This document shows positions 1,752-62,666 of a stretch of DNA of 63,252 bases, piece by piece. Source of the stretch: Burkholderiales bacterium (lineage in GTDB: Bacteria; Pseudomonadota; Gammaproteobacteria; Burkholderiales; SG8-41); NCBI GenBank assembly GCA_050250695.1, contig JBFWOE010000005.1, positions 1 through 63,252 of the forward strand. The letters run 5' to 3'. The notes under the pieces were generated by a model, which worked only from the letters and a program-made list of their open reading frames with translations, ran no database searches and had not been told where the DNA came from. The translations under genes and the position numbers were made by a program. The number at the start of each line of letters is the position of its first letter. Position 1 is the stretch's first letter.

Positions 1752-2174
1752 TCAGATCGCGTGATGGCCTGCGCCTGCCGGCAGCTCCGCCAGTTCGATC
1801 AGGCAGTTCTCCGTCGCCGAGGGATCCAGGAACGCGATGCGGCAGCCGGCGTGACCGATGCGCGGCACCTGGTCCAGCAGAGGGATGCCCTTGGCCTTCA
1901 GCTCGGCGAGCGCCTCGTCAATGTTCTCGACTTCGAGGCAGATGTGATTCAGGCCGCCCTTGCCTTCGGCGATCATTTTCGCCTGCTTGCTGTCGGGCGT
2001 GATGCCGGCGAGCAGTTCGACCATCGAATCGCCCACCGGATAGAGAGCGAGCCGCCGCGTCGCGTTTTCCTCGACGCCGCCGAGCCTGATGCCGAAACAG
2101 CCCTCCCAGAGTTTGCGGCTGGCTTCCACATCGCGAACCACGATGCCGACATGTTCGATCCGTTTGACTTTCAT
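1752..2174 (-). CDS. VOC family protein, methylmalonyl-CoA epimerase-like
   Basis: IEHVGIVV, VELL, GLNHICLEVENI and LIELAE metal-binding VOC motifs; GGAG RBS. Confidence 0.85.
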   Translation of the reverse strand: MKVKRIEHVGIVVRDVEASRKLWEGCFGIRLGGVEENATRRLALYPVGDSMVELLAGITPDSKQAKMIAEGKGGLNHICLEVENIDEALAELKAKGIPLLDQVPRIGHAGCRIAFLDPSATENCLIELAELPAGAGHHAI

Positions 2175-2290
2175 GCTGCGCTCCTCCGTCCGGGCTTGGC
2201 GCATGATGCCCGTAGCACGACATGGACTCAAGCCCGCCGGCGGGTGGTGCGCGGTGTAACATGGCCCGGTCCCGTTCCGGAATCAGCCCC

Positions 2291-2719
2291 ATGACCACCC
2301 TGACCAGCACGGCGACCGCATGCTGGCGGTCCACCGTTCCGCTCTACATCCACCTGGGTTTCGAACTCGATGCACTGGAAGACGGCCGGTCGCAGGTTCG
2401 GCTGAAATTCCAGCCACACCTCGGCAATTCCCGCGGCGAAGTGCACGGCGGCACGGTGGCGGCCATGGTCGATGCCGCGATGTCGCAGGCGGTGCGTTCG
2501 CTGGTCGACCGTGAAATGGGCGTCGCCACCATGACGATGAACCTCGCTTATCTTGCGCCGGCGCGGGGCGAAATCATCTGCCGGGGCAGTGTCATCAAAC
2601 GCGGACGCAGTGTAATGTTCACCGAAGCCGAGGTGATCGGCGAGGATGGCGTACTGGCCTGCCGCGCGGGCGCGAGTTACCGCATCCTGCCCAAAACAGT
2701 TTACGAAAAAACCCCCTAG
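2291..2719 (+). CDS. PaaI family thioesterase
   Basis: N..GEVHGGTVAAMVDAAM hot-dog motif. Confidence 0.9.
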   Translation: MTTLTSTATACWRSTVPLYIHLGFELDALEDGRSQVRLKFQPHLGNSRGEVHGGTVAAMVDAAMSQAVRSLVDREMGVATMTMNLAYLAPARGEIICRGSVIKRGRSVMFTEAEVIGEDGVLACRAGASYRILPKTVYEKTP

Positions 2720-2767
2720 CATCCATGTTCAACGGCGGCGTTCGCTGCCACAACCGGAGGAGTAACC

Positions 2768-3328
2768 ATGAGCAAACCACTGGGCAATGAAGACCTGTCT
2801 GAAAAGCCGGGCGAACGCGTCATCGACAAACCTGAGCTGCCCGCCGGCGGCATCACCAACGAGAACGACGTTTTCACCGAAGTGATCGCCGGCGAGATGC
2901 ACCTCAAGCGCGGCCGCATGGGCAAGTTCGAGGTGTTCACCGACGAGGCGCCGCGCCTCGGCGGTACGGACAAATACCCGTCGCCGATGACCTACCTGGC
3001 GATGGCGGTAGGGTTCTGACTGCTGACCCAGGTTGCGCGGTACGCGCACATGATGAAAATGAAGGTCAGCGGGGCGAACTGCCGCGTGGTGTTCCGCAAG
3101 CATCTTGGCGGATCGGTGCTCAAGGGCACGGTGTTCAACCGCTGGGAAGGTGTCGATACCTATCTCAAGCTGAACAGCGACGAGCCGGCGGACAAGCTTG
3201 CACACCTGATCAAAAACGCCAAGGCAGGCTGTTTTGCCGAGGGCCTGATCGTGCAACCGGTTCCCTTGCACAGTCATGTCGAGGTCAACGGCCAGCCGTT
3301 TCATATCGACGGAGTGACTGGGAAGTAA
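2768..3328 (+). CDS. OsmC-like peroxiredoxin, predicted selenoprotein (Sec84 encoded by TGA 3017-3019), 186 aa
   Basis: ORFs 2768-3019 and 3050-3328 are in one frame, joined by TGA CTG CTG ACC CAG GTT GCG CGG TAC GCG CAC. OsmC motif DEAPRLGGTDKYPSPMTYLAMAVGF-U-LLTQ puts the TGA at the catalytic Cys site; second Cys in GCFAE; SECIS-like hairpin follows. Confidence 0.88.
3032..3049 (+). promoter_or_regulatory. candidate bacterial SECIS hairpin (OsmC-like gene)
   Basis: GT(T)GCGCG-GTA-CGCGCAC: stem starts +13 after the TGA, has a bulged U, loop G at +21; resembles the E. coli fdhF SECIS upper stem. Confidence 0.75.
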
Positions 3329-3409
3329 TCAATAAAACAGATGGTTGTGTAAATCCACCGGAGCGCGGCCTGTGCCGCGCTCCGGAATCCAATGCATGGA
3401 GACAGGTTG

Positions 3410-4288
3410 ATGAGCGCATTCGACATCCACGCCGGCGGCAAGGAAACGCATTTGCCGGACGATTTTCGCTGGCCCGGCGGCAAGCGCATTGCGGTGTTTT
3501 TCCGCGTGTCCTTCGAGTGGTGGTCCGACGGCAAATGGCCTGGCATCGGGCCGATGGGCAATCCGCTGAAGGCGGGCGTGCCCGATCTCAACGCCGTGGG
3601 CTGGGCCGAATACGGACACCGCCGCGGCATCCACCGCATCCTCGACGTGCTGGCGCGGCAGAACACCAGGGCCACCATCAACGTCAGTGGCATCATGGCC
3701 GAACGTTACCCGGAGACGGTGCGCAAAATCGCCGAAGCGGGACATGAAATCGTCGCGCATTCGTACACCATGGACATGATCCCGTGTTACCTGTCCGAGG
3801 AAGAAGAGCGCGCCAACATCGTGCACACCACGGAGCTGATCGAACGTGCCACCGGCATCCGGCCTCGCGGCTGGATCAGTCCGCGCAGCACGCCGGGCCT
3901 GCGTTCGCCGCGGCTGCTCGCCGAAGCCGGTTACGAATGGCACGGCGACACGCTGAACGACGACCTGCCGTACCGTGTCGATTTCGGCGACCGCTCGATC
4001 ATTGCCTTTCCCAACAACACCGAGGTCAACGACCTGCCGCTGTACATGCGCCACGGCAACGCGCCGAAGGTCATGCTCGAGATCTTCGAACACTGGCTCG
4101 ACTGTGCGCGTCACCGCGAGACCGGGCCGGTGCGCATGGATCCGGCGATCCATACCCATGTTTTCGGCCGTTCGCCGGGCCTGTTCGTCTACGAGGACAT
4201 CATCAAGGCCGCGAAGGCCGCAGATGACGTGTGGATCGGAACGCGCTCGGAGGCGGTCGATCATTGCAGGCGTACCCTCGGCGGCTGA
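3410..4288 (+). CDS. polysaccharide deacetylase family protein (PuuE/allantoinase-like)
   Basis: WPGGKRIAV, EYGHRRGIHRIL, GHEIVAHSY, PRGWISP, DDLPY motifs; start could be 3392. Confidence 0.88.
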   Translation: MSAFDIHAGGKETHLPDDFRWPGGKRIAVFFRVSFEWWSDGKWPGIGPMGNPLKAGVPDLNAVGWAEYGHRRGIHRILDVLARQNTRATINVSGIMAERYPETVRKIAEAGHEIVAHSYTMDMIPCYLSEEEERANIVHTTELIERATGIRPRGWISPRSTPGLRSPRLLAEAGYEWHGDTLNDDLPYRVDFGDRSIIAFPNNTEVNDLPLYMRHGNAPKVMLEIFEHWLDCARHRETGPVRMDPAIHTHVFGRSPGLFVYEDIIKAAKAADDVWIGTRSEAVDHCRRTLGG

Positions 4289-4400: not shown

Positions 4401-5375
4401 ATGAACAACATATTTTCCCGGGTCGCAGGCTTGTTGCTGGCGGCATTTGTTGCCGCAGGCGCCGTGCAGCATGCCGTCGCTGCTTATCCCGAGCGGCCGA
4501 TCCGCCTGATCGTGCCGTTTGCACCCCAGGGCCCGAATGACGTGCTTGCCCGGCTGGTCGGGGCCAGGCTGACCGACACCTGGGGACAGCAGGTTGTCGT
4601 CGACAACCGTCCCGGCGCGGGCACCATCATTGGCACCGAACTGCTGGTGCGTTCCCAGCCCGACGGTTACACGCTGCTGATGATTTCTGCGAGCACGGCG
4701 GTCAATCCGACGCTGAAGAAAAAGCTGCCCTACGACACGCTGAAGGAGATTGTGCCGCTGGTGCAGCTGGCATCCTCCCCGACCGTGCTGGTGGTGCACC
4801 CTTCGGTGCAGGCGACGAGCATTTCCGAGCTGGTGGCGCTGGCAAAGGCCAAGCCGGGTGGCCTGACCTTTGCATCCGGCGGCACCGGCACCACCACGCA
4901 CCTGGCCGGCGAGCTGTTCGCGAACACGGCGGGCATCAAGTGGACGCACGTTCCGTACAAGGGTACGGGGCCGGCGAACATCGACCTGCTCGGCGGCCGC
5001 GTCTCAGGCATGTTCGGCACCTTCCTGCCGGTGATCCCGCACATCAAGTCCGGTCGCATGCGCGCGATCGGCGTGACCTCGCTGAAACGCAGCCCGGCGC
5101 TGCCTGACGTGCCTGCGGTGGCCGAGTCGCTCCCGGGCTTCGAAGCGGTGTCGTTCTTCGGCATCGCCACGCCGGCGGGCGTACCGAAAGCCGTGCGCGA
5201 CATGCTCAACCGCGAAATCGCACGCATCATCACCGAACCGGCGATGCGCGAGAACCTGCGCAAGCAGGGCACCGACGCCGTCGGCAACAGCGAGGCCGAG
5301 TTCACCGCATTTTTCCGCGGTGAGATGAAAAAATGGGCCAAAGTGATCAAGGATGCCGGCATCAAGGCAAATTGA
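4401..5375 (+). CDS. tripartite tricarboxylate transporter substrate-binding protein (Bug/TctC)
   Basis: Signal peptide; YPERPIRLIVPF, VVVDNRPGAG, HVPYKG; AGGAGG RBS. Confidence 0.93.
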   Translation: MNNIFSRVAGLLLAAFVAAGAVQHAVAAYPERPIRLIVPFAPQGPNDVLARLVGARLTDTWGQQVVVDNRPGAGTIIGTELLVRSQPDGYTLLMISASTAVNPTLKKKLPYDTLKEIVPLVQLASSPTVLVVHPSVQATSISELVALAKAKPGGLTFASGGTGTTTHLAGELFANTAGIKWTHVPYKGTGPANIDLLGGRVSGMFGTFLPVIPHIKSGRMRAIGVTSLKRSPALPDVPAVAESLPGFEAVSFFGIATPAGVPKAVRDMLNREIARIITEPAMRENLRKQGTDAVGNSEAEFTAFFRGEMKKWAKVIKDAGIKAN

Positions 5376-5394: not shown

Positions 5395-5997
5395 CTAAGT
5401 AAAGTCGAGGCGCGTGTCGCGCAGCACTCCGAACAGGCGGATCGGATCGCGGCGCGGAATGGCCAGCGCCGGCAGTTCCTCGGCTTCCAGCACGATGCCG
5501 CCCGCGGCATATGCGTCCATCACCGGTTTTGACAGCACCATTTCCCCGGCGCGCGCGCGGTGCAGCAGCCGCTCGGCAACGCTGACGCTGTCGCCGACGA
5601 TCAGCGGCTGCACCGGCAGAGCCGGGTCGGCGACGCCGACCACCACATCGCCGGCATGCAGCCCGATCGATACTGCCGCGCGGATGCCGTAGTCCTGCTG
5701 CCACGATTCCTCGATGGCCGTGAATTCGCGCTGGATGTCCTGCGCCGCCGCGACCGCCTGCCGGGCCCGGTCCGCACCGGTGAAGGATGCCATCAGGGTG
5801 TCGTTCAGGGCACTGCGCACCACTCCGCCGTGCGTTTCGACCGCGGTTCGCACCAGCGCGAAAAATTCCGCTGCGCGCGCCAGCACCACGTCCGGCTCGA
5901 GCATTGCCGAAGTACGGGTGAAACCGCTGGTCTCGGCAAACAGGATGACTGCAGCCACGCGTTCCGGTTTCGGCGCTGTTGATTTGGTTGCCGCCAT
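5395..5997 (-). CDS. stand-alone class III adenylate/guanylate cyclase-like domain protein, catalytic residues degenerate
   Basis: ILFAETSGFT, DTLMASF, IGLHAGDVVVG, GDSVSVAERL. Confidence 0.8.
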   Translation of the reverse strand: MAATKSTAPKPERVAAVILFAETSGFTRTSAMLEPDVVLARAAEFFALVRTAVETHGGVVRSALNDTLMASFTGADRARQAVAAAQDIQREFTAIEESWQQDYGIRAAVSIGLHAGDVVVGVADPALPVQPLIVGDSVSVAERLLHRARAGEMVLSKPVMDAYAAGGIVLEAEELPALAIPRRDPIRLFGVLRDTRLDFT

Positions 5998-7250: not shown

Positions 7251-8312
7251 TCAGTCGCGCAGCGTAAAACCCAGACCTGCTGCCGCAGGCACATGGAGTT
7301 TGCCGTCCCTGAACTGCGGTTCGGTCGCAAACCGTTCGCGCAGAGCGGCATGCGCGCCGTGCACTTCGAGCATGCCGCCGTGGGCGTGGCCGGCCATCAC
7401 CGGCAGGTTGGCTGCTTCGAAGCCGCCGGCGCCGGTCACCGGTATGCCGTGCACTTCGGCGAGCGCGAGCAGGCGCAGCATTGCAGTAATGCCGCCGCAG
7501 AACGCGGCGTTGGGCTGCAGGACGTCAAGCGCGCCGGCCACAAGCGCGTCGCGGAACCAGGTCGCAGACTGGATCATCTGTCCGGATGCCAGCGGGATAC
7601 TGATCGCGCGTCTCAGTTCAGCCAGCGCAGGGATGTCGTTGCCACGCAGCGGCTCCTCGAAAAACGCGATGTCGCATTCCGCGACCAGTGAGGCAAGGCG
7701 CTTGGCTTCGGCGACCGTGTAGGCGCAATTGGCATCGAGCATCAGCGGCGCATCGCCGATGGAGGCGCGCACCGCGCGGATGCGCTGCGCTTCTTCGGCG
7801 ATGCTGCGGCCGCCGGCGCCGACGAGGATTTTTGCGCCCTGATAGCCGGCTTTCAGCGCGGCCGTGCAGGCAGCAACGAGTTCTGCTTCGGAAAACGCGG
7901 GCAGCCCGACCGTGGCATAGGCCGGCACCGCGCTGCGTGCGCCGCCGATCAGCCGCGCCACCGGCAGGCTCAATGACTTGCCCTTGATGTCCCACAGTGC
8001 TAGGTCCAGTGCCGACATCGCCGATACAAACACGCCGGGGGACTGGCGCGGATTGAATTTTTTTGCGAGCTGCGCGGTGACGGCTTCGATGTCGAGCGCA
8101 TCCATTCCCCTGGCGGTGGCGGCAATGCCGCCGTTCAGCAGGTGCGCCACCTGGTCGGCAAGGAAGCGACCGGTGACGCCTTCCCCGGAAATGCCTTCAG
8201 ACGCGCTGACCTTGCAGCGCAGGAAAGTCAGGCTTTCCTGTCCTGCATAGGCGTCTGCCGCGCGTGCGGGCTTGATGTGTTCGACTGTTGCACGGATGTC
8301 GAGAATTTTCAT
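7251..8312 (-). CDS. mandelate racemase/muconate lactonizing enzyme family protein
   Basis: ALDLALWDIKGK, LMLDAN, FFEEP, LDVLQPN...GGIT. Confidence 0.9.
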   Translation of the reverse strand: MKILDIRATVEHIKPARAADAYAGQESLTFLRCKVSASEGISGEGVTGRFLADQVAHLLNGGIAATARGMDALDIEAVTAQLAKKFNPRQSPGVFVSAMSALDLALWDIKGKSLSLPVARLIGGARSAVPAYATVGLPAFSEAELVAACTAALKAGYQGAKILVGAGGRSIAEEAQRIRAVRASIGDAPLMLDANCAYTVAEAKRLASLVAECDIAFFEEPLRGNDIPALAELRRAISIPLASGQMIQSATWFRDALVAGALDVLQPNAAFCGGITAMLRLLALAEVHGIPVTGAGGFEAANLPVMAGHAHGGMLEVHGAHAALRERFATEPQFRDGKLHVPAAAGLGFTLRD

Positions 8313-13017: not shown

Positions 13018-13989
13018 TCAGTCCAGCCGGATATTCGCCGCCTTGATGACCCTGGCCCATTTGGCGATCTCGCTGACCATGTATCGGCCCAGCTCCCCGG
13101 GCTTGCCGCCGTCCGGTTCGATGCCGGACTTGGTCAGGAAGGCGCGGATACCGGGGTCGCCCAGCACCTTGCGGAACTCCTCGTTGATCCTGGCGATAAC
13201 CGGCTGCGGCGTGCCCTTGGGCGCGACGATGCCGTACCAGACCCCCGAGTCGTAACCTGGCACGCCGGATTCCGCGACAGTGGGCACACCAGGCATGCTG
13301 TTGACCCGCTTGGTGGTGCTCACCGCGATGGCGCGGATGCGCCCGGCCTTGATGTGCGCGGCGGAAGCAATTGGCGTTGCGAACAGCAGCTGGGTCTGTC
13401 CCGAAATCGTATCCACCAGCGCCGGACCGCCGCCCTTGTACGGCACATGCACGAGCTTGATGCCGGTGATGGTTTTCAGCAGTTCGGTTGCCAGGTGCGC
13501 ACCGGAGCCGTTGCCGGAGGAGGCGTACAGAATCTCGTCGGGATGTTTTTTTGCGACGGCGATCACATCCTTCATGGTTTTCACCGGCAGCGACGGATGC
13601 GCAACCAGCAGATAGGCGCCGCTGCCGAGCAGGGTGACCGGTTCGAAGTCCTTCACCGGATCGTAGGGCAGTTTATTGTACAGGCTGACATTGACTGCGA
13701 GCTGGGCGGTCAGGCCCATGGCGATGGTGTAGCCGTCGGGAGCCGAACGCGCCGCGGCTTCCATGCCGATGCTGCCGCCCGCGCCGCCGCGGTTGTCGAC
13801 GACAACCTGGTGGCCGATGTTTTCGGACATCTTGCGGGCGACCGGCCGCGCAATGGTGTCACTGCCGCCGCCGGGTGGATAGGGCAATATGAAGCGGATC
13901 GATTTGGCGGGATAGGTCTGTGCCAGCACGGCGGGGGTGGCAACCAGCGCGACGAGCACCAGCAGCGACAGACCAGCGGTTTTATTCAT
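13018..13989 (-). CDS. Bug/TctC substrate-binding protein
   Basis: YPAKSIRFILPYPPGGGSD, HVPYKGGGPA. Confidence 0.93.
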   Translation of the reverse strand: MNKTAGLSLLVLVALVATPAVLAQTYPAKSIRFILPYPPGGGSDTIARPVARKMSENIGHQVVVDNRGGAGGSIGMEAAARSAPDGYTIAMGLTAQLAVNVSLYNKLPYDPVKDFEPVTLLGSGAYLLVAHPSLPVKTMKDVIAVAKKHPDEILYASSGNGSGAHLATELLKTITGIKLVHVPYKGGGPALVDTISGQTQLLFATPIASAAHIKAGRIRAIAVSTTKRVNSMPGVPTVAESGVPGYDSGVWYGIVAPKGTPQPVIARINEEFRKVLGDPGIRAFLTKSGIEPDGGKPGELGRYMVSEIAKWARVIKAANIRLD

Positions 13990-25175: not shown

Positions 25176-26141
25176 TTATTGCGGGCTGATTTTTTCGTCG
25201 CGGATGACCTTGGTCCAGCGCGTGATTTCAGCGGCCACGAAGCGCTGGGCTTCATCCGGGGTGGAAGGCGTAACCTCCGCTCCAAGCTGGGTCAGCTTTC
25301 CGGAAACAGCGGGCTGTCGCAGGGCTGATGTCACCACGCCGTTCAGCCGCTTGACCATGCCGGCGCTCAAACCCTTGGGCGCGGCAACCGCATACCACCC
25401 GCGGACGTCAAAGCCGGGGATGGTCTCGGCTATGGTCGGGGTATCCGGCCAGAAGCTGGCGCGTTTTCCCGTCGTAATCGCCAGCACACGCATTTTGCCG
25501 CTGGCCAGATGGGGTGCCACGCCGGCAGGGGTATTGAAAATGACCGGAATTTCACCGGCGAGCAATGCCATCGGCGCCGAACTGCCCCCTTTGTAAGGGA
25601 TGTGGTTCAACTGGATGCCGGCACGGGACTGGAACAGCACCGATGCCAGGTGCATGCCGGTGCCGACGCCACCGGTGCCGTAGTTGATCGCTCCTGGCTT
25701 GTCCTTGCCCATGCGGATCAGATCCGCGACCGACCGCGCCTGAAATTGCGGTGCTGTGGCCATCACGAAAGGCGTGGCTGCGGCCATTGAAATGACCGTG
25801 AAGTCTTTTGCGGCGTCGTAGGGGAGCTTTTTGTAAAGGCCCACTGACGTGGCATGCCCGGAGGCCATCAGGAACAGGGTGTAACCATCCGGTTCGCCGC
25901 GGGCGACGATGGCGGCGCCCACCGTGCCGCCGGCACCGGGGCGCCCGTCAACGACGACCTGCTGACCCAGGGTCTCGGACATCGAACCCGCCAGCAGCCG
26001 GGCGGTGATGTCGACGGAACCTCCCGAGGTGAAACCATGCACCATGCGTATGGGTTTGACTGGCCAGGTCTGGGCATGCGCGCCGCTGATGGCTTCGGAA
26101 AGGAACAGCAGCGCCAGGATTGGGAATATTCCGGTTTTCAT
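25176..26141 (-). CDS. Bug/TctC substrate-binding protein
   Basis: WPVKPIRMV, RPGAGG, HIPYKG. Confidence 0.92.
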   Translation of the reverse strand: MKTGIFPILALLFLSEAISGAHAQTWPVKPIRMVHGFTSGGSVDITARLLAGSMSETLGQQVVVDGRPGAGGTVGAAIVARGEPDGYTLFLMASGHATSVGLYKKLPYDAAKDFTVISMAAATPFVMATAPQFQARSVADLIRMGKDKPGAINYGTGGVGTGMHLASVLFQSRAGIQLNHIPYKGGSSAPMALLAGEIPVIFNTPAGVAPHLASGKMRVLAITTGKRASFWPDTPTIAETIPGFDVRGWYAVAAPKGLSAGMVKRLNGVVTSALRQPAVSGKLTQLGAEVTPSTPDEAQRFVAAEITRWTKVIRDEKISPQ

Positions 26142-36492: not shown

Positions 36493-37467
36493 TCAGCGGG
36501 TCTTGATACCCGCCTTCTGCACGATGTCGGTGTACTTGGTGATCTCGCCCTTGATCAGCTTGGTCAGTTCCTCGGGGCTGCTGCCCACGGGATCCAGCGC
36601 CTGCTGTTGGTAGAACTCGCGCACGGCCTTCGCGTCCAGGGCCTGTTTCACCTGCGCGTTGAGCGTGGTCACCACGTTCTTCGGCGTGCCCGCGGGCACG
36701 AACACCGCGTACCACTGGTCGGTCACGAAGCCGGGATAGAAGGTGTTCATCGTCGGCAGGGACGGGTTCCACGCGGTCGGTTTTTCGGTGGATACGGCGA
36801 TCGCGCGCACGCGTTTGGCGTTGATGTGCGTCATCAGCGCCGGCGGCGTGTTGAACAGCATGTCGGCTTCGCCTGTGGCGAGTCCCAGCCCCGACGGACC
36901 GCCGCCCTTGTACTGGATGATCACGCTCTTGGCCTTGGTGAACTGCTTGAACATTTCCGCGGAGAGGTGGCTGGTGGTGCCCACGCCGTTGGCGGCGATG
37001 TTCAGCCCGCTCGGCGCCTTCAGGGAAAGCGCAACCAGTTCTTTCACCGTCCTCGCAGGAACGCTGGGATGCACCGCCAGCACCAGAGCCGTGTTGCTGA
37101 CCCACGTTACCGGGTCGAGGTCCTTCAGCAGGTTGAAGCGGATGGACTTCTTCTGCAGCACCGCGTTCAGCGAAATCGAGGCCGAGGTCATCAGTACCGT
37201 GTAGCCGTCGGGCGCGGCCTTGGTGACGGCTTCGGCACCTATCAGTCCGCCGTTGCCGGTGCGGTTCTCGACAAGGAAGTTCTGCTTCAGGCCCGCGCGC
37301 AGCCTGTCCGCGAGCAGGCGACCCTGCAGGTCAGTGCCGCCGCCGGTGCTGAAGGGCACGATGAAGCGGACCGGTTTTTCGGGATAGGCAGCCGATGCGG
37401 AGCCAATGGTGCCGAAAACCATGAATGCCAATGCCAACATGTTCCTGCACAGTTCTGATTTGATCAT
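36493..37467 (-). CDS. Bug/TctC substrate-binding protein
   Basis: YPEKPVRFIVPFSTGGGTD; YKGGGP. Confidence 0.92.
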   Translation of the reverse strand: MIKSELCRNMLALAFMVFGTIGSASAAYPEKPVRFIVPFSTGGGTDLQGRLLADRLRAGLKQNFLVENRTGNGGLIGAEAVTKAAPDGYTVLMTSASISLNAVLQKKSIRFNLLKDLDPVTWVSNTALVLAVHPSVPARTVKELVALSLKAPSGLNIAANGVGTTSHLSAEMFKQFTKAKSVIIQYKGGGPSGLGLATGEADMLFNTPPALMTHINAKRVRAIAVSTEKPTAWNPSLPTMNTFYPGFVTDQWYAVFVPAGTPKNVVTTLNAQVKQALDAKAVREFYQQQALDPVGSSPEELTKLIKGEITKYTDIVQKAGIKTR

Positions 37468-39717: not shown

Positions 39718-40710
39718 TTATTTGGCCGGCGCCTTCGCCAGCCCGATGTCGGTCAGGATGGCCTTGATCTCGCCGAACTGCTTGTCCAGATGGCGCCTGG
39801 TTCGTGCGCGGTCCAGGGGTTCGTTGGGTATGTAATAGGACGCCAGCTCCTTGTCCCATTCCTCGGTCGCGGTCAGCTTTTTCAGCGCGTTGTCCCAATA
39901 GTCGGCCTGCACGTCGGTGATCCCTTTCGGCGCGATCGCCAGGCGCCAGTTTTCCGCGATCACCGGAATGCCGGCTTCCGTCAGCGTGGGAACCGTTGCA
40001 TAGATGCCGCCGATGCGCTTGGGCGCGGCAACCGCCAGCGGGCGGATCTGGCTGCCCTTGAAGGGGCCGGCCGTGGCGGACAATGAATTCACGAAAAGCC
40101 CGACGTGGCCGCCCAGCAGGCCGACCAATGCACTGTTCGTTCCCGAAAAAATCACGACCTTCATCTTGTTGATGTCCACGCCGGCGGCCTTGGCCAGGCG
40201 TCCGAGGGCAATGTGATTGGCGCCGCCGGCACTGCTCGAAACGCCGGCAACCACCGAACCCGGGTCCTCCTTAAGCAACTTGACGAGGTCGCCGACGGAT
40301 TTAATCGGCGAATCGGCGCGCACCGAATAGGCGATGTACTCGCTGGCCAGCAGCGAAACCGGCGTGAAGTCCGTATAGGTCAGCTTGCTCTTGCCGTTGA
40401 TGTAGTTGGCGACGATGTTGTAGGAGGTGATCAGCAGGAAGTGCGGATCGCCGCTGCGCTGGTTCAGGTATGCCCAGCTGATTGCGCCGCCGCCGCCCGG
40501 CTTGTTGGTCACGCTGACCGACACGTCCAGCATTTTTTTCTCGCGCCAGATCTGCTCCATCAGCCGCGCCACCCGGTCGGTACCGGTGCCGGCACTCGAT
40601 CCGACGACGATTTCGACGTTACGTTCCGGGCTCCATCCGCCTTGCGCGTGCGCATGGACGGTTACCGACATTGCAAGGATGGCCAATACCGAAATCAGGC
40701 TGCTGCGCAT
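39718..40710 (-). CDS. Bug/TctC substrate-binding protein
   Basis: WSPERNVEIVV, NKPGGGG, VPTLTEAG. Confidence 0.9.
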   Translation of the reverse strand: MRSSLISVLAILAMSVTVHAHAQGGWSPERNVEIVVGSSAGTGTDRVARLMEQIWREKKMLDVSVSVTNKPGGGGAISWAYLNQRSGDPHFLLITSYNIVANYINGKSKLTYTDFTPVSLLASEYIAYSVRADSPIKSVGDLVKLLKEDPGSVVAGVSSSAGGANHIALGRLAKAAGVDINKMKVVIFSGTNSALVGLLGGHVGLFVNSLSATAGPFKGSQIRPLAVAAPKRIGGIYATVPTLTEAGIPVIAENWRLAIAPKGITDVQADYWDNALKKLTATEEWDKELASYYIPNEPLDRARTRRHLDKQFGEIKAILTDIGLAKAPAK

Positions 40711-43253: not shown

Positions 43254-44231
43254 ATGTTGAGGACCACCTTGCGCGCTGCGCTCGTTTGCGCCGCGGCCGT
43301 ATCCGCACTTGCCGCAGGCCCGCTGGCGGCGCAGCAGTTTCCGACCAAGATACTGCGCGTCGTGAATCCCAACAATCCTGGCGGCAACAGCGACGTGCTG
43401 TTCCGGCTGCTCGCGCCGAAGATGGGCGAAGTGCTCGGCCATCAGCTCGTCATCGACTACCGGCCCGGCGCCGGCGGCAACATCGGCGCGGAAATGGTGT
43501 CGCGCGCCGCGCCCGACGGCTACACCACGCTGATCGCGGCGGCGAGCATCCTGATCAACCCGGCGATGCTGAAAACCCTGCCCTTTGACGTGGAGAAGGA
43601 CTTTACGCCGCTGGGCGTCATCGTCGACATCCCGGCCGGCCTGGTCGTGCATCCCTCGCTGCCGGTGAAAAGCGTGAGCGACCTCGTCGCGCTCGCCAAG
43701 AAGCGGCCGGGCGAACTGAACTTCTCGAGCTCCGGCCGCGGCGCACTGGGCCACCTCGCGGGCGCGCTGCTCAATGCCTCGACCGGCATCAAGACCGTGC
43801 ACATTCCCTACAAGGGCGCGGGTCCGTCGATCGTCGATCTTGTTGCGGGCCAGGTGGAGTTTTCCTTCGTCAGCCTCCCGGCGATTTCCGGCCATCTGCA
43901 GAGCGGGCGGCTGCGCATGATCGCGCAGTGCGGCGAGAAACGTTTCGTCTCCTTCCCCGACATTCCCACCATGGTCGAGGCGGGCGTGAAGGACTTCGTC
44001 GTCACCAGCCCCTTCAGCTACCTCGGCCCCGCGCGCATGCCGCAGCAGGTCGCGGCAAAACTCAACGGCGCGCTGCGCGCCTCGCTGCACGATCCGAAGA
44101 ACAAGAAAATCCTCATCGACCGCGGCGCGCTGCCGGTCGGCAACACCTCTGCGGAACACGCGGCGCTGATCAAGTCCGAGATCGCGAAGTGGAAGAAGGT
44201 GGCGCGTTCGGCGGGGCTCAAGCCGCAGTAA
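43254..44231 (+). CDS. Bug/TctC substrate-binding protein
   Basis: RPGAGGNIG, HIPYKGAGP. Confidence 0.92.
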   Translation: MLRTTLRAALVCAAAVSALAAGPLAAQQFPTKILRVVNPNNPGGNSDVLFRLLAPKMGEVLGHQLVIDYRPGAGGNIGAEMVSRAAPDGYTTLIAAASILINPAMLKTLPFDVEKDFTPLGVIVDIPAGLVVHPSLPVKSVSDLVALAKKRPGELNFSSSGRGALGHLAGALLNASTGIKTVHIPYKGAGPSIVDLVAGQVEFSFVSLPAISGHLQSGRLRMIAQCGEKRFVSFPDIPTMVEAGVKDFVVTSPFSYLGPARMPQQVAAKLNGALRASLHDPKNKKILIDRGALPVGNTSAEHAALIKSEIAKWKKVARSAGLKPQ

Positions 44232-61697: not shown

Positions 61698-62666
61698 TTA
61701 ACGCTTGATATTCGCGTCCTTGATCAACTGCGTCCATTTGGCGATTTCGCTGGCCACTTCAGCCTGCAGAGCTTCCGGCGTGCTGCCGGCGACGTCGATG
61801 CCCAGGCTTTCGAGCTTTGCGCGCACGTCAGGCAGTTGCAGCACCGGAATCACTTCCCGGTTCAGCGTGGCGACGATGGGCTTCGGAGTGGCGGCGGGCG
61901 CGTAGAGCGCATAGTCCGTATACGACTCGAAGCCCTTCAACCCGGCCTCGCTCATCGTCGGCACCTGGGGCAACTGTGCCGAGCGATTTCGGCGCGCCAC
62001 ACCGAGCGCGCGCAGCCGCCCGGCCTTGATATGGGGCAGATGCGCCGGCAGGCTGTCGATGGCCAGCGATACCCGGCCGTCGATCAGGTCGGGCAGCAAT
62101 TGTGACGAGCCCTTGTAGGGCACATGCAGGATATTGATGCCGGCCATCTGTTTGAACATCTCGCCGGTGAGATGGATGAGTCCGCCGATACCGGATGACG
62201 CGAAACTCAACTGGCCGGGTTTGGCTTTTGCGAGCGCGACCAGTTCCTGCACCGAACTCACGCCGAGGCTGGGGGGCACTACCATCACGACCGTCCCGAA
62301 ACCAATCTTGCTGATCGGCGCCAGATCACGGCGCATGTCGTAGTTGAGCTTCGGGTAATAGGCGTGGGCGATGGCGAGGCCGATGACGGGTGCGGTCAGC
62401 AGCGTGTAACCATCGGGTGTGCTTTTCGCGGCAATCGAGGTGCCGAGCGTCGCGCCGGCGCCGGGGCGGTTGTCCACGACCATGGTCTGCCCCAGCCGGG
62501 CGCCGAGCTTTTCGCCGACGGTTCGTCCGACGATGTCGACACCGCCGCCCGCCGGGAAGGGCACGATCAGGCGTATGGGTTTGGTCGGATACTTCTGCTG
62601 GGCGTGTGCGCCGCCTGTGACAAGCAGCAGTCCAAGCACTGCGGAAATCAGCCAGTAAGCTCGCAT
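61698..62666 (-). CDS. Bug/TctC substrate-binding protein
   Basis: YPTKPIRLIVPFPAGGGVD, HVPYKG. Confidence 0.93.
   Translation of the reverse strand: MRAYWLISAVLGLLLVTGGAHAQQKYPTKPIRLIVPFPAGGGVDIVGRTVGEKLGARLGQTMVVDNRPGAGATLGTSIAAKSTPDGYTLLTAPVIGLAIAHAYYPKLNYDMRRDLAPISKIGFGTVVMVVPPSLGVSSVQELVALAKAKPGQLSFASSGIGGLIHLTGEMFKQMAGINILHVPYKGSSQLLPDLIDGRVSLAIDSLPAHLPHIKAGRLRALGVARRNRSAQLPQVPTMSEAGLKGFESYTDYALYAPAATPKPIVATLNREVIPVLQLPDVRAKLESLGIDVAGSTPEALQAEVASEIAKWTQLIKDANIKR

Follow-up and report, generated by a model that had tools for sequence, protein, structure and literature searches.

A gene for an OsmC-type selenoprotein of a curated family, with an fdhF-like hairpin downstream of its in-frame UGA, in an uncultured Burkholderiales lineage

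The window (the whole 63,252-nt stretch of DNA analysed here) carries at positions 2768–3328 of the forward strand a real and ordinary gene for an OsmC-type antioxidant selenoprotein, a member of an already described and curated family (NCBIfam NF041052). We consider it very probable that the gene encodes one intact 186-residue protein of OsmC fold, that selenocysteine (Sec) is inserted at UGA codon 84 under the direction of a downstream hairpin, and that the product has a general role in redox chemistry or peroxide defence. The assignment draws on the sequence and its open reading frame, on Pfam and NCBIfam profiles and on an AlphaFold2 model.

The reading frame begins at ATG 2768, five nucleotides after a Shine-Dalgarno-like GGAGGAG that can be read directly from the sequence (2756–2762, forward strand), contains one in-frame TGA (3017–3019) and ends at TAA 3326–3328. 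With TGA translated as U the product is 186 residues long. Codon 84 falls in ...YLAMAVGF-U-LLTQVARYAHMMK... and a second cysteine, in ...NAKAGCFAE..., is residue 155 (codon 3230–3232, forward strand). The first-pass annotation had pointed to GF-TGA-LLTQ with the frame open to 3328, and to a second Cys in GCFAE; the sequence agrees with it on both.

Against the NCBIfam model NF041052, "OsmC-related (seleno)protein", whose curated cut-off is 95 bits, the readthrough product scores 165.5 bits (E = 6.7e-49), with residues 37–175 aligned to profile positions 6–144 of 144; in a six-frame search the score was 157.2 bits. Membership of the wider superfamily is indicated by the Pfam OsmC profile (PF02566), which scores 39.9 bits against a gathering threshold of 27.5 over residues 66–166. 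The closest solved structure by sequence is the OsmC-like protein 3cje (E = 2.9e-7, or 5.6e-12 with the family profile). The alignment sets codon 84 against the first Cys of 3cje (GCVMTQ) and Cys155 against the second (KKGCFLE), so that U84 and C155 occupy the places of the two redox cysteines typical of the OsmC/Ohr superfamily. Within the OsmC/COG1765 domain the residues U84-L-L-T87 form the UxxT motif of OsmC-like selenoproteins. In 148 distinct sequences Cys155, the presumed resolving cysteine, is 100% conserved, with both Cys codons in use (H = 0.98).

An AlphaFold2 model made from a 21-sequence alignment has a mean pLDDT of 84.6, and places residue 84 within a long helix (73–95) and residue 155 between helices 141–154 and 156–160. 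Searching the PDB with this model by Foldseek gave 64 matches at E ≤ 0.001, of which the top ones are all OsmC/Ohr proteins with identities of 12–21%. Family scores, a single frame and the Cys alignment together bear out the earlier reading of a single Sec-containing OsmC-like protein.

Ahead of the OsmC domain, and beyond the curated domain model, lies an N-terminal extension, PGERVIDKPELP (residues 1–36, positions 2768–2875). It is conserved, with P22, L24 and P25 nearly invariant; model confidence here is just 74–77.

One set of relatives came from a draw of 61 genomes, 24 of them from other families of the order. A family match over the cut-off is present in 17 of the 61, all in the genus of the window (17 of 37 genus genomes, the source genome counted), and each match contains exactly one TGA; no match above the cut-off was found in the 24 genomes from other families. 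In an 18th genus genome (G032) the gene is cut by a contig end and the same TGA is visible. The motif GF-TGA-LLTQVARYAHMMKMKV is found at 18 of 18 same-genus loci.

Two wider scans gave the same result. A species-level scan (one genome per species) produced 235 pattern matches and 196 relatives, and all of the best 80 loci kept from these relatives have TGA at codon 84; the search pattern lay downstream of codon 84 and is therefore without bias towards TGA. Metagenome contigs were scanned with an aligned set of Cys forms as query, which yielded 383 matches and 245 relatives. Despite the Cys-form query, TGA is found in 82 of 82 motif instances in the best 80 of these loci. Over the three samples (18, 80 and 82) the Sec form accounts for 180 of 180 motif instances. 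The protein database adds 19 hits, among them four full-length proteins (P0002, P0003, P0004 and P0006) in which Cys stands opposite codon 84 of the readthrough product; this alignment with homologues had been proposed as a check in the first-pass annotation, and its outcome is as expected of a Sec codon. The retention of TGA, the Cys in these four homologues and the 3cje alignment all point to UGA 3017–3019 (forward strand) as the codon for Sec84.

The same database contains material for a different reading, namely that the TGA is a true stop and the locus either a pseudogene or a split OsmC of 83 aa and 92 aa, the latter starting at ATG 3050. Translation table 11 does divide the gene into ORFs 2768–3019 (83 aa) and 3050–3328 (92 aa), and halves are present in public protein sets (P0008, P0009, P0011–P0015), several of the hits being N halves that end in ...GF or C halves that begin with MMK... 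Speaking against a true stop, all 180 motif instances have the TGA in frame precisely where homologues have Cys. Moreover, a 152-codon stretch compared across 148 distinct sequences has no stop besides codon 84, and constraint at the protein level extends over both halves: 3' of the TGA the protein is conserved while synonymous sites vary freely. ATG 3050, situated just 3' of the conserved hairpin, has no Shine-Dalgarno-like motif ahead of it, the predicted helix 73–95 would bridge the break, and the genome has the full Sec machinery (below). On this evidence a true stop is exceedingly improbable. Homologues existing as two separate proteins had been named at the outset as the case that would speak against a selenoprotein; such halves exist in the databases, but at each locus whose DNA was inspected there is a single frame containing TGA. 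The split proteins are therefore best taken as artefacts of gene callers at an unrecognised Sec codon, and not as a refutation.

The database entries P0005 and P0007–P0018 comprise halves, one protein in which the Sec codon is read as W, and a number of chimeric calls that enter from another frame, a pattern of systematic mis-annotation of the Sec-OsmC family. Some relatives carry more than one copy of the gene. A 1756-nt metagenome contig (L154) has two in tandem (125–580 and 1014–1469), both with TGA and 57–66% identical to the window protein, and six MAGs have, according to record names, two copies on different contigs (L061/L068, L065/L071, L083/L094, L038/L103, L086/L095 and L077/L102).

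The core of the candidate SECIS is the hairpin GGTTGCGCGGTACGCGCAC at 3031–3049 (forward strand). Counting from the U of UGA, G16–C33 and U17–A32 are paired, U18 is bulged, and five G–C pairs run from G19–C31 to G23–C27 (3035–3039 with 3043–3047). The apical loop is GUA (G24 U25 A26; 3040–3042), 24–26 nt from the U of UGA. It has the anatomy of an fdhF-type SECIS, in which the stem-loop begins about 11 nt 3' of UGA, the apical loop is small and contains G(U), and a U in the upper stem is unpaired. The sequence GGTTGCGCGGTACGCGCAC has its sole exact copy here in the 3.42-Mb genome. Allowing up to three substitutions there are eight near copies in the genome; a TGA comes before just one of them (contig C17), which was rejected because the two are not in the same frame.

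Among 65 distinct sequences pairing in the core helix reaches 99.8%, and five of the seven pairs show no variation at all, which makes the stem too invariant for covariation. Changes are few and preserve pairing: C33 is replaced by U in L136, L137, L140 and L155, giving a G16–U33 pairing, and one of the L154 copies has G for U18, U for C31 and C for A32, all three together (by reading of the printed sequences). In 148 distinct genes codon entropy is 0–0.30 bits at Q88, V89, A90, R91, Y92, A93 and H94, compared with 0.9–1.8 bits at equally invariant residues elsewhere (for example, G115, V117, T121, G154, C155 and E158). The freeze of synonymous sites at codons 88–94 means that the nucleotides themselves are selected, exactly at the hairpin, and beyond what the protein demands.

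A possible, weakly supported lower stem, 3020–3028 with 3064–3072, surrounds the core hairpin in the MFE and centroid folds (3020–3072, forward strand). In the 65 sequences 78.1% of its cells are paired and two of nine pairs show changes on both sides, while at five of the nine pairs 17–38 of the sequences are unpaired. The folding energy of 3005–3075 is not unusual (z = −1.02; 34 of 200 shuffles are at least as stable), and because it is not significant we relied upon the comparative evidence. An Rfam scan of 2600–3500 at E ≤ 10 returned no SECIS family; the three matches in this interval (IMPDH RNA, istR and a human lncRNA) are at chance level. Conserved pairing, frozen synonymous sites and an offset from UGA like that of fdhF argue strongly that the hairpin at 3031–3049 acts as a bacterial SECIS.

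The genome of the window has the components needed to decode such a signal. ARAGORN detected one tRNA-SeC(tca) at C98:1493–1587. Adjoining it on contig C98 are selB (421.5 bits) and selA (574.7 bits), both over their cut-offs, and selD, also over its cut-off, is split across two contig ends (C177 and C151; 298.5 and 206.2 bits). tRNA-Sec, SelA, SelB and SelD, the set that marks the Sec-decoding trait, thus occur in one genome. selB passes the cut-off in 15 of the 18 genus genomes in which the Sec-OsmC gene occurs; it was not found in G012, G022 and G025, which are fragmented assemblies (84, 81 and 92% complete, respectively). In the source genome selD, too, encodes a selenoprotein (GGG-UGA-GCK; G000:C177, about position 5095, locus L005), and a GUU triloop lies at nt 24–26 after its UGA, the same distance as in the Sec-OsmC gene. 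A second selenoprotein was sought as formate dehydrogenase: the 17 molybdopterin-enzyme matches have no internal stop and none is over the cut-off.

These components also bear on a further alternative, in which the protein is free of selenium: a near-cognate tRNA would place Cys or Trp at UGA84, or a reassigned code would give the codon an ordinary meaning. Low-level read-through of UGA occurs in bacteria, and one of the 19 database hits (P0007) has Trp at the Sec position. A reassigned code is countered by the window itself, in which TGA is the commonest stop, terminating 18 of 33 long non-overlapping ORFs, so that the code is standard. Reading as Cys or Trp would in addition leave without a role both a frozen hairpin at the position and distance of a SECIS and a set comprising tRNA-Sec, selA, selB and selD. 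We regard a selenium-free protein as very improbable.

The first-pass annotation had placed the gene in a co-oriented, closely spaced run with a PaaI thioesterase, a PuuE-like deacetylase and a Bug receptor, and had suggested that the Sec/Cys pair may serve a catabolic pathway. The arrangement is as described. Directly upstream, at 2222–2719 (forward strand), is a hotdog-fold (4HBT) thioesterase gene of uncertain start codon; downstream follow a polysaccharide-deacetylase-family gene (3410–4288, forward strand, start 3392 or 3410) and a gene for a TctC/Bug periplasmic receptor (4401–5375, forward strand, ATG 4401). All three were assigned from profile matches, and the gaps are of about 50–110 nt. 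A divergent gene of VOC/glyoxalase fold (1752–2231, reverse strand), resembling methylmalonyl-CoA epimerase at a score below cut-off, precedes the thioesterase gene and serves, through profile matches and synteny, as the marker of a syntenic block.

The more specific names for two of these neighbours hold at the level of superfamily and fail at that of curated models. The upstream gene scores 26.9 bits against 118.9 for PaaI thioesterase (TIGR02286) and passes only the general hotdog-domain model TIGR00369 (54.4 against 36.6); the downstream gene scores 97.3 against 424.6 bits for allantoinase PuuE (TIGR03212) and passes Pfam Polysacc_deac_1 (56.3 against 23.1).

Between the stop of the selenoprotein gene and the next gene, at 3358–3385 (forward strand), the RNA is predicted to fold into a perfect 12-bp GC-rich hairpin with arms CCGGAGCGCGGC and GCCGCGCUCCGG, a loop of CUGU and no U tract; the interval 3329–3412 folds at −33.7 kcal/mol. 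A terminator scan did not call this hairpin, and Rfam gave only chance-level overlaps on it (E = 1.2 and 2.4). Just downstream of the gene run are a stand-alone adenylate/guanylate-cyclase catalytic-domain protein of 200 aa (5395–5997, reverse strand), syntenic in several genus loci, and a gene of the mandelate racemase/muconate-lactonising-enzyme superfamily (7251–8312, reverse strand).

The question is whether the Sec/Cys protein belongs, as a dedicated component, to a catabolic module that also includes the thioesterase, the deacetylase and the Bug receptor, acting for example upon a pathway-specific oxidant or thiol adduct. Co-orientation and short gaps are what such a module would show, and in the genus the thioesterase lies directly upstream at 16 of 18 loci, being missing from L010 and L017. 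The deacetylase is less constant: at the 16 genus loci that extend downstream it follows the gene in just eight, the TctC gene following directly in the other eight. Moreover, a strong hairpin lies between the selenoprotein and deacetylase genes. Related genomes are also non-independent samples. In the species-level set (the best 80 of 196) the thioesterase occurs at 14 of the 74 loci that reach far enough upstream and the deacetylase at 8 of the 70 that reach far enough downstream, and both are confined to 19 loci that keep the VOC gene and form one syntenic block of close relatives. In the remaining loci of this set neither was found (0 of 61).

TctC is the only recurrent neighbour outside the block, adjacent in 25 of the 61 non-syntenic loci as against a rough chance expectation of about 14%. 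This expectation derives from at least 146 TctC matches in the 3.42-Mb genome (150 of 159 candidates scored), seven of them in the window (4548–5360, 13033–13854, 25197–26003, 36508–37320, 39742–40539, 43401–44216 and 61710–62528). So high a density makes proximity to a Bug receptor a weak argument. Nor do the TctC neighbours outside the block form a single orthologous group: at ≥60% identity the largest groups have two or three members.

The neighbourhood, then, is conserved only in one block of 19 close relatives. Because the neighbours are restricted to syntenic relatives we do not accept a pathway-specific role for the Sec/Cys pair, and consider a dedicated module unlikely; the block has the appearance of a gene order passed down within one genus. 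A narrower version of the idea is that in this genus an acyl-CoA-type module (VOC, thioesterase, Sec-OsmC and sometimes deacetylase and Bug receptor) has taken up the Sec-OsmC protein, which would there act on a pathway-specific oxidised thiol or peroxide, with the N-terminal PGERVIDKPELP as a possible docking site for a partner; this we hold to be decidedly unlikely. We read the product as a general redox or peroxide-defence protein and not as a dedicated companion of the thioesterase and deacetylase genes.

How such a protein might be made and work can be outlined from its anatomy, from the machinery in the genome and from its family. SelB loaded with Sec-tRNA(Sec) would bind the GU-containing apical loop and the bulged U of the hairpin when the ribosome arrives at UGA84, and selenocysteine would be delivered in place of termination. 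OsmC/Ohr proteins employ a peroxidatic and a resolving cysteine (Cys59 and Cys125 in E. coli OsmC). Sec84, in the long central helix, would stand in for the first, peroxidatic Cys and, on attacking a hydroperoxide or other oxidised substrate, become a selenenic acid, which Cys155 would resolve to a selenenylsulfide, itself then open to reduction by a thiol reductant of lipoyl or thioredoxin type. Peroxidase activity is, by this analogy, what we infer for the Sec-OsmC protein. One departure concerns the segment of Pro-Glu-Glu-Leu type that presumably lies some 10 residues before the first Cys of Ohr/OsmC: here it reads P-M-T-Y, and the catalytic Glu of these enzymes may consequently be missing from the window protein.

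Beyond correct annotation the finding matters little. Gene callers split the gene at UGA, and as a result the selenoproteomes of uncultured Burkholderiales are undercounted. The near-constant Sec form, together with an almost invariant SECIS core, makes the gene an easy metagenome marker of selenium use. In the literature searched we know of no experimental study of any member of the Sec-OsmC family, which is a convenient candidate for a first biochemical test of Sec-OsmC function.

Comparison with known systems begins with the hairpin. In the first-pass annotation it had been likened to the SECIS of E. coli fdhF, and the likeness is borne out by the fdhF sequence of NC_000913.3: in both, GGUUGC occupies nt 15–20 from the U of UGA (UGA140 in fdhF), a U of the 5' strand is left unpaired, GGU sits at the loop, and the 3' strand ends in GCAC. 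They differ in that the upper stem of the window hairpin, with its five G–C pairs, is two base pairs longer, and in the loop, which here is GUA (GGUAC if the closing G–C pair opens) and has its GU at 24–25 nt from UGA as against 23–24 in fdhF.

The protein shares the fold of the thiol-dependent organic hydroperoxide reductases of the OsmC/Ohr group (PDB 1lql, 1vla, 1n2f and 6ebg), with Foldseek E values of 2e-9 to 1e-6 and TM scores on the target of 0.6–0.8, and, on the 3cje alignment, it has the same two conserved redox residues at first-helix and second-helix positions. It differs from them in its low identity (12–21% only) and in having Sec in place of the first Cys. With respect to the NF041052 model, which covers residues 37–175, the window protein adds the conserved N-terminal extension of about 36 residues, PGERVIDKPELP.

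Selenoproteins of this kind are already known and curated. An OsmC-like selenoprotein family was described in 2005 from three Sargasso sequences, with COG1765, a UxxT motif and a predicted bacterial SECIS (Zhang, Fomenko and Gladyshev 2005, PMC1088965, Table 3), and the entry is repeated in tables of the reviews PMC9312934 and PMC13188914. These members came from marine plankton, whereas the window copy belongs, going by record titles, to an uncultured Burkholderiales lineage of freshwater or soil type. As far as the 2005 table characterises the family, the window gene shares with it the OsmC domain (COG1765/PF02566), Sec in UxxT (here U-L-L-T) and, just 3' of the UGA, a SECIS of bacterial type whose small apical loop contains G, and differs from it in no respect of kind.
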